DNA from: Escherichia coli
GTDB taxonomy: Bacteria > Pseudomonadota > Gammaproteobacteria > Enterobacterales > Enterobacteriaceae
NCBI RefSeq assembly: GCF_045037415.1
Contig: NZ_CP173438.1
Strand: one strand, 5' to 3'
DNA length: 64,000 bases
Numbering within the stretch: position 1 is the first letter of the stretch; each line of letters begins with the position of its first letter. Positions 32,951 through 36,305 of this stretch are shown here, one piece after another. The position numbers and the translations under genes were made by a program. The notes beneath the pieces were generated by a model. It had not been told where the DNA came from. It searched no databases and saw only the letters and a program-made list of their open reading frames with translations.

Positions 32951-33610
32951 ATGAGCGAACAAATCACGTTTGCCACCAGCGATTTTGCCAGTAACCCGGA
33001 ACCACGTTGCCCCTGCATTTTGCTGCTGGATGTTTCTGGTTCTATGAACGGTAGACCCATTAATGAACTTAACGCCGGATTGGTTACCTTTCGCGATGAG
33101 CTGCTTGCCGATTCGCTGGCCTTAAAAAGAGTGGAACTCGGCATTGTGACGTTCGGCCCGGTGCATGTGGAACAACCCTTTACCAGCGCCGCTAATTTTT
33201 TCCCGCCCATCCTGTTTGCCCAGGGCGATACACCAATGGGCTCTGCCATTACCAAAGCCCTGGATATGGTTGAGGAGCGGAAACGTGAATATCGTGCCAA
33301 TGGTATTTCCTATTATCGTCCGTGGATTTTCCTGATCACCGATGGTGCACCAACCGATGAGTGGCAGGCTGCCGCCAACAAAGTGTTTCAGGGGGAAGAA
33401 GATAAGAAGTTTGCCTTCTTTACCATCGGCGTTCAGGGGGCGGATATGAAGACGCTGGCACAAATCAGCGTTCGTCAGCCTTTGCCACTGCAGGGATTAC
33501 AATTCCGTGAACTGTTTAGCTGGTTATCCAGTTCGCTGCGTTCGGTTTCCCGCTCCACGCCGGGAACGGAAGTTGTGCTGGAAGCGCCAAAAGGCTGGAC
33601 GTCAGTGTGA
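32951..33610 (+). CDS. yegL: vWA-domain protein YegL, 219 aa
   Basis: MIDAS motif DVSGSM ([10 protein letters not shown]) and vWA-like fold; stop overlaps the yegK start. Confidence 0.85.
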
Positions 33611-34368
33611 GCTGGCGACTGGTCTATGCATCAGCCGTTGGAACGTCGCACATCAGTGCGGACTTGCCTTGCCAGGATGCCTGCCAGATACAGGTTGCCT
33701 GGCTAAATGACCAGCAGCCATTATTGTCGGTATTTGTCGCTGATGGCGCAGGTAGCGCCTCGCAGGGAGGCGAAGGTGCGATGCTCGCCGTCAATGAAGC
33801 GATGGCTTATATGTCGCAAAAAGTGCAGGGCGGGGAATTGGGGCTTAATGATGTCCTCGCAACGGACATTGTGCTGACCATTCGTCAGCGACTTTTTGCC
33901 GAGGCGGAAGCCAAAGAATTAGCGGTTCGCGATTTTGCCTGCACGTTTTTGGGATTGATTTCATCAGCTAATGGCACCTTGATTATGCAGATTGGCGATG
34001 GCGGCGTGGTGGTAGATTTGGGTCACGGTTTGCAACTGCCGCTCACGCCGATGGTGGGGGAATATGCCAATATGACGCACTTCATTACTGATGAAGATGC
34101 CGTTTCCAGACTGGATACTTTCACCAGCACTGAGCGTGCGCACAAAGTTGCAGCATTTACGGATGGTATTCAGCGACTGGCGTTAAATATGCTGGATAAT
34201 TCTCCGCATATGCCTTTCTTTACCCCGTTTTTCAATGGACTGGCGTCAGCAACGCAGGAACAACTCGATTTATTACCTGAATTGTTAAAGCAGTTTTTGT
34301 CCAGCCCGGCGGTAAACGAGCGTACGGATGATGATAAAACGTTGGCACTGGCGCTGTGGTTACCATGA
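33607..34368 (+). CDS. yegK: PP2C-family Ser/Thr phosphatase YegK (PphC), 253 aa
   Basis: PP2C-like metal-binding Asp residues (FVADGAGS..., IGDGG); GTGA overlap with yegL and ATGA overlap with yegI. Confidence 0.82.
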
Positions 34369-36305
34369 AACCCACTTTATATACTGCTACTGGTGAGTGC
34401 GTTACGCCAGGCCGTGAACTGGGCAAAGGCGGCGAAGGTGCGGTTTATGATATCGAGGAGTTTGTCGAGAGCGTCGCCAAGATTTATCACACGTCGCCTC
34501 CCGCCTTAAAACAGGACAAACTTGCCTTTATGGCTGCGACAGCTGACGCGCAGTTGTTGAATTATGTCGCCTGGCCGCAGGCAACGCTTCACGGTGGACG
34601 AGGTGGAAAAGTTATCGGTTTTATGATGCCAAAAGTTTCTGGTAAAGAACCGATTCATATGATCTATAGCCCGGCACATCGTCGCCAGAGTTACCCTCAT
34701 TGTGCGTGGGATTTTCTACTCTATGTTGCGCGCAATATTGCTTCATCTTTTGCTACGGTTCACGAGCACGGGCACGTCGTGGGTGACGTAAACCAGAACA
34801 GCTTTATGGTAGGTCGCGACAGCAAAGTGGTGATGATTGATAGCGACTCCTTTCAGATTAATGCCAATGGTACACTGCATTTATGCGAAGTCGGCGTGTC
34901 GCATTTTACGCCGCCAGAGCTGCAAACCATGCCATCATTTGTCGGCTTTGAACGCACAGAAAATCACGATAATTTTGGCCTTGCGTTGCTGATATTTCAC
35001 GTCTTGTTTGGTGGGCGGCATCCTTATTCCGGTGTACCGCTTATCTCTGATGCGGGTAATGCGCTGGAGACGGATATTGCCCATTTCCGTTATGCCTACG
35101 CGTCAGATAATCAGCGACGTGGTTTAAAACCGCCGCCACGATCGATTCCGCTGTCGATGTTACCGGGCGATGTTGAAGCCATGTTTCAGCAGGCATTCAC
35201 GGAAAGTGGCGTGGCAACCGGGCGTCCGACGGCAAAAGCGTGGGTAGCGGCACTTGATTTACTACGCCAACAGTTAAAGAAATGTACCGTTTCGGCAATG
35301 CATGTTTATCCCGGTCATTTGGCTGACTGCCCATGGTGTGCGCTGGATAATCAAGGTGTTATCTATTTTATTGATCTCGGCGAAGAGGTCATTACCACCG
35401 GCGGGAATTTTGTGCTGGCGAAAGTCTGGGCGATGGTGATGGCGTCAGTAGCACCGCCAGCATTGCAATTGCCATTACCCGATCATTTCCAGGCTGCTGG
35501 CAGGCCGCTTCCTTCAGGCCTGTTAAGGCGCGAATACATCATTCTGATTGAGATCGCACTGTCAGGGTTATCGCTGCTGCTTTGCGGCCTTCAGACAGAA
35601 CCGCGTTATATCATTTTGGTTCCCGTGCTGGCGGCTATCTGGATTATTGGCAGCCTGACAAGCAAAGCGTACAAAGTAGAAGTCCAGCGACGAAGAGAGG
35701 CTTTTAATCGCGCAAAAATGGACTATGACCATTTAGTCAGCCAGATCCAACAGTTGGGCGGGCTGGAAGGTTTTATCGCCAAACGGGCGATGCTCGAAAA
35801 AATGAAGGACGAAATTCTTGGGTTACCGGAAGAAGAAAAGCGCGATCTGGCAGCACTTCACGACACCGCAAGGGAACGGCAGAAGCAGAAGTTTCTGGAG
35901 GGATTTTTTATTGATGTTGCCTCTATTCCCGGCGTTGGCCCTGCGCGTAAAGCGGCGTTACGGTCCTTTGGTATTGAAACAGCAGCGGACGTTACCCGAC
36001 GGAGCGTTAAGCAAGTTAGGGGTTTTGGTGATCATCTGACCCAGGCGGTTATCGACTGGAAAGCGAGTTGCGAACGCCGTTTTGTTTTCAGGCCGAACGA
36101 AGCGGTAACGCCTGCAGACAGACAAGCGGTAATGGCAAAAATGGCCGCCAAACGACATCGGCTGGAATCGGCGCTGACTGTCGGTGCGACAGAGTTGCAG
36201 CGATTCCGCCTTCAAGCTCCAGCACGGACCATGCCGTTGATGGAACCGTTACGTCAGGCGGCAGAAAAACTGGCTCAGGCGCAGGCTGATTTAAGCCGTT
36301 GCTGA
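34356..36305 (+). CDS. yegI: Hanks-type Ser/Thr protein kinase YegI with TM segments and C-terminal HhH-containing domain
   Basis: Gly-rich loop GKGGEGAVYD, catalytic HGDVNQNSF and DFG-like DSDSFQ; two predicted TM helices; HhH-like IPGVGPARKAALRSFG. Start is either GTG 34356 or ATG 34365. Confidence 0.82.
   Translation: MVTMKPTLYTATGECVTPGRELGKGGEGAVYDIEEFVESVAKIYHTSPPALKQDKLAFMAATADAQLLNYVAWPQATLHGGRGGKVIGFMMPKVSGKEPIHMIYSPAHRRQSYPHCAWDFLLYVARNIASSFATVHEHGHVVGDVNQNSFMVGRDSKVVMIDSDSFQINANGTLHLCEVGVSHFTPPELQTMPSFVGFERTENHDNFGLALLIFHVLFGGRHPYSGVPLISDAGNALETDIAHFRYAYASDNQRRGLKPPPRSIPLSMLPGDVEAMFQQAFTESGVATGRPTAKAWVAALDLLRQQLKKCTVSAMHVYPGHLADCPWCALDNQGVIYFIDLGEEVITTGGNFVLAKVWAMVMASVAPPALQLPLPDHFQAAGRPLPSGLLRREYIILIEIALSGLSLLLCGLQTEPRYIILVPVLAAIWIIGSLTSKAYKVEVQRRREAFNRAKMDYDHLVSQIQQLGGLEGFIAKRAMLEKMKDEILGLPEEEKRDLAALHDTARERQKQKFLEGFFIDVASIPGVGPARKAALRSFGIETAADVTRRSVKQVRGFGDHLTQAVIDWKASCERRFVFRPNEAVTPADRQAVMAKMAAKRHRLESALTVGATELQRFRLQAPARTMPLMEPLRQAAEKLAQAQADLSRC

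Follow-up and report, generated by a model that had tools for sequence, protein, structure and literature searches.

The three genes at positions 32951–36305 of a 64,000-nucleotide stretch of Escherichia coli DNA (RefSeq assembly GCF_045037415.1, contig NZ_CP173438.1; the whole stretch is called the window here) can be identified with strong confidence as the known and named yegL-pphC-yegI operon, a member of the TerY-P class of signaling triads that combine a vWA protein, a PP2C phosphatase, and a protein kinase. The operon is not new. Its genes are named, its enzymology is published, and its architecture has already been described; the comparative points reported here refine that picture and do not amount to a new kind of system. 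They bear on a real gap, the physiology of the only eukaryotic-like kinase/PP2C pair in E. coli. The explanation that we lean toward overall, with moderate confidence, is that the triad would act as a TerY-P-class phosphorylation switch with DNA or phage as the trigger and YegL as the output.

Gene organization and identity of the operon

All three genes are on the plus strand. The yegL gene (32951–33610) starts with ATG and codes for 219 aa, pphC (also named yegK; 33607–34368) starts with GTG and codes for 253 aa, and yegI (34365–36305) starts with ATG and codes for 646 aa. The yegL stop and the pphC start overlap in a GTGA (33607–33610), and the pphC stop and the yegI start overlap in an ATGA (34365–34368). 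An earlier annotation made from the sequence alone (the sequence-only reading) had described three co-directional genes with these two overlaps, and it was correct to the base. The overlaps suggest that the three proteins may be translated together through translational coupling. A comparison of related loci found the yegL/pphC junction abutting or overlapping in most of them. The longest mechanical open reading frame (ORF) for yegI begins at a GTG at 34356 and the RefSeq start is the ATG at 34365; we use the latter because the published residue numbers K39, D141, and D159-S160-D161 agree with it.

The window is 100% identical in this region to E. coli strain 4/1-1 (NZ_CP023844), in which RefSeq places yegL, pphC, yegI, and the neighboring yegD at exactly the same positions. 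Product names for the triad in that strain are vWA domain-containing protein, protein-serine/threonine phosphatase PphC, and protein kinase YegI. Rajagopalan and Dworkin described two arrangements of this locus, one with the ATGA overlap (B strains and many pathogens) and one with yegJ between pphC and yegI (K-12 lineage). The genes in their papers (J Bacteriol 2018; FEBS Lett 2020) are the same as those analyzed here, and the window has the ATGA-overlap arrangement without yegJ. All key residues published for YegI (K39, D141, S153, D159-S160-D161, and S162) are present in the window protein. The two papers do not contain a TerY-P assignment, the zinc ribbon or helix-hairpin-helix (HhH) module of YegI described below, or a role for YegL. 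The sequence-only reading called the cassette poorly characterized, which is true of its physiological role but not of its enzyme activities, the dephosphorylation of YegI by PphC, or the membrane topology of YegI, all of which are published.

The phosphatase and the kinase

PphC matches the PP2C_2 family (PF13672, E 4.8e-52) over residues 11–220. The conserved metal-site pattern consists of D24, D46-G47, D131-G132, D186-G187, and D242-D243, and the six aspartates D24, D46, D131, D186, D242, and D243 are each at least 97% conserved among 67 family members. The profile match and the metal-binding aspartates bear out the earlier description of a PP2C-like phosphatase. By a published count, PphC retains six of the eight canonical PP2C residues (10.1101/303594). 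It is a Mn-dependent PP2C-like phosphatase that dephosphorylates YegI and is phosphorylated by YegI, and its activity in vitro is low (10.1101/303594).

The N-terminal part of YegI (aa 1–302, 34365–35270) is an atypical eukaryotic-like protein kinase (ePK) domain. The Pfam Pkinase model (PF00069) does not match E. coli YegI even at E ≤10, but a confident fold model, the Pkinase matches of relatives, and invariant catalytic residues show that the protein is a kinase. Pkinase is matched at E ≤1e-3 by 24 of 30 relatives with 30%–53% identity to YegI (best E 1.9e-10). The alignment-based AlphaFold model has a predicted local distance difference test score (pLDDT) of 93, and Foldseek matches for its first 300 residues are to PknA, PknB, Aurora B, and CaMKII (E ~1e-7, target-normalized TM-score [TMt] 0.64–0.74). 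A sequence search of the PDB with YegI gave a marginal match to the effector kinase NleH1 (E 0.01). Residues G22, E24, K39, D141, N143, D159, D161, and S162 are invariant, and the Gly-rich loop, also invariant, reads G-x-G-G-E-G. Alignment identified two family signatures, G-D141-V-N143-Q-[GN]-[NS] in the catalytic loop (aa 141–146, 34785–34802) and D159-[CS]-D161-S162, which is D-S-D-S in the window (aa 159–162, 34839–34850). YegI is therefore an atypical ePK in which VGD and DSD replace HRD and DFG. The label "Hanks-type" in the sequence-only reading needs qualifying: the protein-kinase fold and the relatives that match Pkinase agree with it, the Pfam model misses the E. coli protein itself, and the canonical HRD and DFG motifs are absent. 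Profile hidden Markov model searches and residue checks find the catalytic residues in place in both enzymes (K39, D141, and D159 in the kinase and the six aspartates in the PP2C). The canonical catalytic-loop Asn at position 146 is kept in about two-thirds of the family. Its replacement by Ser in YegI has been pointed out in the literature, and Ser occurs at this position in the closest relatives examined (Klebsiella spallanzanii and Piscinibacter) and in at most one-quarter of the aligned family members.

Published biochemistry agrees on activity. YegI is an active, Mn2+-preferring Ser/Thr kinase whose activity is abolished by K39D and D141N and lost when the D-S-D loop is altered to DFG or DSG, and it activates itself by autophosphorylation of serines around the D-S-D-S loop (S153, S160, and S162; 10.1101/819920). 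A switch formed by YegI and PphC is highly probable. It resembles the PknB/PstP and PrkC/PrpC pairs, in which a membrane kinase is activated by autophosphorylation of the activation loop and reset by a co-transcribed PP2C, and the predicted fold of YegI is close to those of PknA and PknB. Unlike PknB and PrkC, YegI lacks an extracytoplasmic sensor such as PASTA and has both ends in the cytoplasm. It also differs from eukaryotic-like Ser/Thr kinases of bacteria in that VGD...N and D-[CS]-D-S replace HRD...N and DFG, and in that a vWA partner is obligatory.

Four further elements follow the kinase domain of YegI. A short segment (aa 304–329, 35274–35351) carries C307, H313, C322, and C325, which are invariant in alignments of 63 and 67 homologues, and it forms a small beta hairpin and a helix in the model. 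This CHCC module appears to be a zinc-ribbon-like site. A transmembrane (TM) hairpin (aa ~389–436, 35529–35672) was located from Kyte-Doolittle windows at residues 390–411 and 413–435, which are helices in the model. These two hydrophobic helices (residues 390–435) are in keeping with the membrane anchor expected from the sequence alone, and with the PhoA-LacZ topology of an inner-membrane protein that crosses the membrane twice and keeps both termini cytoplasmic (10.1101/819920). The TM hairpin is the least conserved segment of YegI (12% identity). An (HhH)2 module (aa ~515–571, 35907–36077) was identified by a match to HHH_5 (E ~1e-3, residues 515–551) and by a family profile, and the C-terminal HhH-like motif noted earlier is thus present. 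Its hairpins are a G-V-G near residue 525 and a G-F-G near residue 555, and the family profile of the region matches the (HhH)2 of L32e, REV1, Pol IV, RAD51, UvrC, and ComEA (E 0.004–0.16). On this weak but consistent support, the module is a predicted non-specific nucleic-acid binder. The (HhH)2 module and the kinase domain are the best kept parts of YegI (52% and 49% identity, respectively). The protein ends in a long helix (aa 583–645, 36111–36299; pLDDT >88 in the AlphaFold2 [AF2] model) that probably forms, with helices in residues 437–511 of the model, a coiled-coil or dimerization region.

The vWA protein

YegL is much the best conserved and most constrained member of the triad. Across 64 non-Escherichia loci, the median identity to the E. 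coli protein is 67% for YegL compared to 41% for PphC and 39% for YegI. YegL matches Pfam VWA (PF00092, E 5.9e-10), and its AF2 model (pLDDT 85) superposes on integrin-I, anthrax-receptor, and von Willebrand A3 domains. No hydrophobic segment was found in YegL, which is therefore cytoplasmic. The metal ion-dependent adhesion site (MIDAS) consists of D27-x-S29-x-S31 (33029–33043) with T94 (33230–33232) and D131 (33341–33343). All five residues are present, as the sequence-only reading proposed for a MIDAS-bearing vWA protein, and the conservation of each reaches at least 97% among 67 family members. A second motif, W191-L-S193-x-S195...S200-x-S202 (33521–33556), lies on and just past the last helix (residues 185–200 in the AF2 model). 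The MIDAS residues, together with S193, S195, and S200, are invariant across 30 aligned sequences that include two plasmid TerY proteins. In integrin I domains, the element equivalent to the last helix of YegL (the alpha7 helix) controls the state of the MIDAS. We infer from the alignments that the Ser-rich tail is a candidate phospho-acceptor; a role for YegL as substrate or adaptor is a proposal that could fall either way.

Relation to TerY-P systems

The vWA/PP2C/kinase architecture was said from sequence alone to recur in bacteria as a signaling module. It does, and it has already been named the TerY-P triad, whose members are a vWA protein resembling TerY, a PP2C, and a kinase with a fused zinc ribbon (Anantharaman, Iyer and Aravind 2012, as cited in PMC11090510 and PMC4978471). 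We used the ter cluster of the IncHI2 plasmid pSI170-1 (locus L091) for comparison. YegL and IncHI2 TerY share 31% identity over 181 aa (E 4e-25), PphC matches the PP2C domain of the ter cluster (E 2e-5), and YegI aligns with the ter-plasmid kinase over a stretch that begins at the end of the C-lobe and takes in the ribbon (E 1e-6). The kinase cores are too diverged for alignment by BLASTP. The order of vWA, PP2C, and kinase genes is the same in the IncHI2 ter cluster, and a tblastn search with YegL matched 2331 plasmid records, mostly ter plasmids. Judged by these alignments, all three E. coli proteins are distant homologues of the tellurite-plasmid TerY-P triad in the same gene order, and they belong to a separate subfamily.

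Features shared with the ter-plasmid triad are a TerY-type vWA protein of ~215 aa that bears a MIDAS and has a W-x-S-x-S tail, a PP2C, and a kinase joined to a zinc ribbon. Unlike the ter-plasmid triad, the E. coli triad lacks TerD, TerC, and TerW genes, extra TerY copies, and a TerY-C domain. Its PP2C is short, without the ~290-aa N-terminal extension of the ter-cluster PP2C, and in YegI the ribbon is followed by the TM hairpin, coiled coil, and (HhH)2, a stretch occupied in the ter kinase by a soluble beta-rich domain. Linkage to ter genes or to DNA-processing and restriction genes was not found in E. coli, and linkage to restriction or defense genes occurs in part of the homologous loci; such linkage is a frequent association of TerY-P and not a strict requirement. 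A stand-alone TerY-P-like triad with a kinase-OB-fold protein is reported to be anti-phage (Gao 2020, as cited in PMC11090510 and PMC7699616). The E. coli operon is like that system in being a three-gene cassette of vWA, PP2C, and Ser/Thr kinase without ter genes. In both, what is fused to the C-terminus of the kinase suggests binding to nucleic acid (an OB fold in the Gao 2020 system and (HhH)2 in YegI). They differ in the C-terminal module itself and in the membrane anchoring of YegI.

Two additional observations were made in this comparison. A DUF4236 gene is present in the IncHI2 ter cluster (L091, 4839–6047) and beside six YegLKI-like triads (L009, 1962–3182; L021, L032, L033, L067, and L081), a second link of the YegLKI-like triads to the ter system. 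The kinase of the pSI170-1 ter cluster is split into two overlapping ORFs, one with the kinase (L091, 11670–12704) and one with the ribbon and beta-rich domain (12685–13224). This reflects either a frameshift or a sequencing error, and the PLSDB gene table has no gene there.

Distribution and inheritance of the triad

Representative relatives of YegI number 9597 at E ≤1e-3 and 3179 at E ≤1e-30, and the ~646-aa architecture is kept down to ~34% identity. A scan of one genome per species found at least 569 stretches that encode the subfamily build (kinase, CHCC zinc ribbon, TM hairpin, coiled coil, and (HhH)2), that is, at least 569 species including archaea. Among the best 80 of these, proteobacteria are represented by Escherichia species, Klebsiella spallanzanii, many Burkholderiales, Pseudomonas, and Competibacteraceae, and other lineages by the Actinobacteria Frankia and Georgenia, Planctomycetes, Acidobacteria, Chlorobi, Synergistaceae (Synergistetes), and Methanoregula archaea. 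In a large protein database, matches within Escherichia are at least 89% identical to YegI, and the next ones are at 62% (Klebsiella) and 60% (Piscinibacter). Such a gap fits a history in which the Escherichia lineage acquired the gene, as opposed to inheriting it vertically within Enterobacteriaceae. Many truncated YegI proteins are also present in the protein database.

The vWA, PP2C, and kinase genes occur in order on one strand in ~85 of 90 loci. Essentially every related locus with enough flanking DNA has the three genes in the same order and orientation, and the co-conservation on which the sequence-only reading depended is upheld. Pairwise distance matrices of the three proteins are correlated (rho 0.75–0.83; Mantel 0/500). 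Across bacteria and some archaea, the three genes are passed on and spread together as a unit, and plasmid pQBR103 carries the triad. A full triad was also observed in eight Methanoregula/Methanomicrobiales bins (L062, L068, L072, L075, L077, L078, L080, and L089), with YegL ~60% identical to that of E. coli. If the bins are clean, these triads would imply transfer between domains.

A possible fourth component was sought among the neighbors. The gene yegD (36318–37670, minus strand) codes for an Hsp70/actin-like protein and matches its NCBIfam equivalog (PRK11678, 808 bits); NCBIfam has no specific model for YegL, PphC, or YegI. It is convergent with the triad, and 12 bases (36306–36317) separate the yegI stop from the stop-containing end of yegD at 36318, exactly as had been read from the sequence. 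Among the 90 loci, yegD accompanies the triad in Escherichia only and is absent from every non-Escherichia locus, which rules it out as a fourth component. Both yegD and yegJ are outside the conserved unit. Clustering of flanking ORFs was also used to look for a universal fourth gene or effector and gave lineage-restricted neighbors only: a TetR gene in Competibacteraceae, a secreted Cys-rich protein in Burkholderia, a 69-aa ORF with a SNase gene in some Burkholderiales, and the DUF4236 gene.

In several Burkholderiales loci, a conserved basic ORF of 69–70 aa and a staphylococcal-nuclease-type (SNase) gene are directly upstream of the vWA gene (L005, 5719–6474; L009, 5700–6501; L008, 6075–6284; also L015, L029, and L059). 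For this branch, the pair could serve as an accessory effector.

Proposed function and alternatives

Under the phosphorylation-switch explanation that we favor, PphC would keep the YegI kinase off. The trigger would be foreign or abnormal DNA, or a phage product, acting at the inner membrane through the (HhH)2 and ribbon part of YegI. Foreign or damaged DNA is the most economical guess for the input in view of three things: the HhH module, the DNA damage seen on overproduction, and the defense-gene neighbors in other taxa. Triggered YegI would dimerize and win over PphC, and it would phosphorylate conserved serines of the last helix of YegL (candidates S193, S195, S200, and S202). Phosphorylation of YegL may then change ligand binding at the MIDAS and relay the signal, and the end effect would be a stress response or a response of the abortive-infection type. 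The comparative results thereby supply a candidate substrate site (the YegL serines) and a candidate input module (the (HhH)2 and ribbon of YegI).

We scanned the neighborhoods of homologous triads for defense genes. Of ~27 independent non-Escherichia loci, eight have clear defense genes within 8 kb, and two further loci have strong PADLOC candidate families, including PDC-S01; these counts have no random-locus baseline, and in most loci just one to three large neighbors were scanned. In Pseudomonas alcaligenes, a complete Gabija system (GajA, 715 bits, and GajB, 736 bits) is directly upstream and ends 57 bases before the vWA gene (L038, 2567–6528). An Avs2 gene is upstream of the triad in Rhodoferax (L016, 4–3828). 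Neighbors at other triad loci are GmrSD, type I restriction-modification (RM), and SymE/BrnA; BrxR, JetB, an SLFN-type helicase, and ScoMcrA; AbiH and a KAP NTPase; type I RM and Mrr; a type I restriction endonuclease; and a type II DNA methyltransferase with RtcR. The defense-gene neighborhood is suggestive but uncontrolled. The sequence-only reading had raised the sensing of envelope or phage-related cues as speculation, and speculation it is, although the neighbors in other taxa lend indirect support to its phage side. The occurrence of Gabija, Avs2, RM, and Abi genes beside the triad in other bacteria justifies phage and plasmid challenge in the model organism. A defense or foreign-DNA role in E. 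coli can be advanced tentatively. If defense or DNA surveillance is its true role, the operon would be an unusual core-genome immune module and a tractable model for TerY-P triad signaling.

Several results weigh against a phage- or DNA-triggered switch. In E. coli the cassette is part of the core genome at a fixed site with host-like G+C content, which is untypical of defense systems, and its neighbors (the efflux operon mdtABC, Sib/Ibs loci, yegD, and alkA) include no defense genes. About two-thirds of the sampled non-Escherichia loci have no defense neighbor, in a sample with no matched random-locus control, and some triads sit among ordinary genes (e.g., L007, among metabolic genes). A search of 50,697 phage records found no full-length homologue of the triad, and the literature searched held no paper that links the operon to phage or gives a phage phenotype. 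Rajagopalan and Dworkin found no condition that gives robust expression of the operon (10.1101/303594; 10.1101/819920). The PADLOC TerY-P models, which are narrow, gave E 0.021 for YegL and no match for PphC, and YegI had only weak matches to the PD-T4-6 and MkoA kinases. In the control loci L091 (IncHI2 pSI170-1) and L092 (pQBR103), the PADLOC v2 TerY-P models also missed the canonical tellurite-plasmid TerY, PP2C, and kinase. Assignment to TerY-P by PADLOC therefore failed in an uninformative way, and ter-type and YegLKI-type triads go unseen by this tool because its models miss the canonical tellurite-plasmid proteins. Lastly, the triad contains no gene for an effector (nuclease, pore, or NADase). 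Downstream action must therefore rely on host proteins, and the extreme conservation of YegL fits this.

The alternative that survives best, though we consider it unlikely, is a domesticated housekeeping or stress-signaling module of Escherichia that tunes endogenous targets (stationary phase, DNA metabolism, and membrane stress are possible settings) and has no role against phage or mobile DNA. YegL would then be an adaptor for cellular proteins. At least 80% of a 3.7-kb query covering the cassette was found in 5402 of 5426 complete E. coli genomes (99.6%), a core distribution at a fixed chromosomal site that supports this alternative, as does the host-like G+C content (~0.50), by which a foreign base composition was ruled out. 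The ratio of nonsynonymous to synonymous divergence (dN/dS) in the cassette is 0.07–0.17 and indicates purifying selection. Synonymous divergence (dS) is 0.15–0.19 in the cassette compared to 0.12–0.17 in the flanking mdtA, yegD, and alkA genes; diversifying selection was ruled out on these values, which reflect lineage background and somewhat relaxed constraint. Other points in favor are weak expression in stationary phase only (10.1101/819920), recurrent yegI mutations in the long-term evolution experiment (10.1101/303594), the rise in endogenous DNA damage when either YegL or YegI is overproduced (10.1101/354589), and homologous loci among plain metabolic genes, such as L007. A purely housekeeping role is at odds with the patchy, horizontally transferred distribution of the family, the carriage of the triad on plasmids, the frequent defense-gene neighbors in other taxa, the homology to a triad class with reported anti-phage activity, and the fact that PphC is the sole known endogenous substrate.

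More improbable still is a core-genome, membrane-anchored, DNA-sensing immune switch of the TerY-P class that has been missed by defense finders. The MIDAS of phosphorylated YegL would in that case bind and redirect a conserved cellular target, and such a target would explain the ~60% identity of YegL from E. coli to methanogens.

A Ter-like sensor of metal or tellurite stress, in which the YegL MIDAS would report a divalent metal and the kinase/phosphatase pair would turn this into a phosphorylation signal, is very unlikely. In its favor, YegL is truly homologous to TerY and its MIDAS is intact, both enzymes prefer Mn2+, and the DUF4236 gene is found in the ter cluster as well as beside several YegLKI-like triads. 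The original TerY-P proposal was itself a metal-sensing switch (as cited in PMC11090510). Against this, no TerD, TerC, TerB, or TerZ is present beside the E. coli cassette or in seven Pfam-annotated homologous loci, the metal of a MIDAS usually serves peptide-ligand binding and not the sensing of metal concentration, and the conserved HhH and Zn-ribbon modules would be left unexplained.

A silent evolutionary remnant, kept in E. coli by chance or linkage, could account for the lack of robust laboratory expression, the interruption of the locus by the yegJ segment in 35% of genomes and by insertion sequences in some, and the low PphC activity in vitro, but it is scarcely credible when all three ORFs are intact in >99% of genomes, dN/dS at the observed dS shows continued purifying selection, the catalytic and MIDAS residues are retained, and both enzymes are active.

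Allelic variation and neighboring features

The pphC/yegI junction is uninterrupted in 3470 of 5426 E. coli genomes, and 1924 carry the yegJ-bearing segment. In the K-12-type allele, an AT-rich segment of ~0.77 kb takes the place of the final two pphC codons and approximately the first 15 codons of yegI, and this allele is more than a plain insertion of yegJ (window 34358–34420 compared to L002 4995–5800). Because the yegJ segment replaces the start of yegI, the K-12-type YegI begins METNIKVFTSTGELTTLGRELG, unlike YegI in the window. The window allele and a yegJ-type allele differ by ~6% at the protein level in PphC and YegI, and most E. coli genomes are 90%–95% identical to the window at the cassette. 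In some genomes, IS1 or IS150 has inserted within the yegL-yegI locus. A 2026 paper reports that YegJ binds RNase E and that yegD is induced when YegJ is overproduced (PMC13232886).

No promoter or terminator signal at the cassette rose above shuffled expectation, and Rfam identified no structured RNA inside it. The two Rfam matches are SIB_RNA antitoxin genes upstream of the cassette (RF00113; 32334–32476, 136 bits, and 32662–32804, 143 bits; both on the minus strand). Both are located between mdtA and yegL, opposite short RefSeq-annotated Ibs toxin ORFs, and they explain why the 3.7-kb query matches several places per genome.

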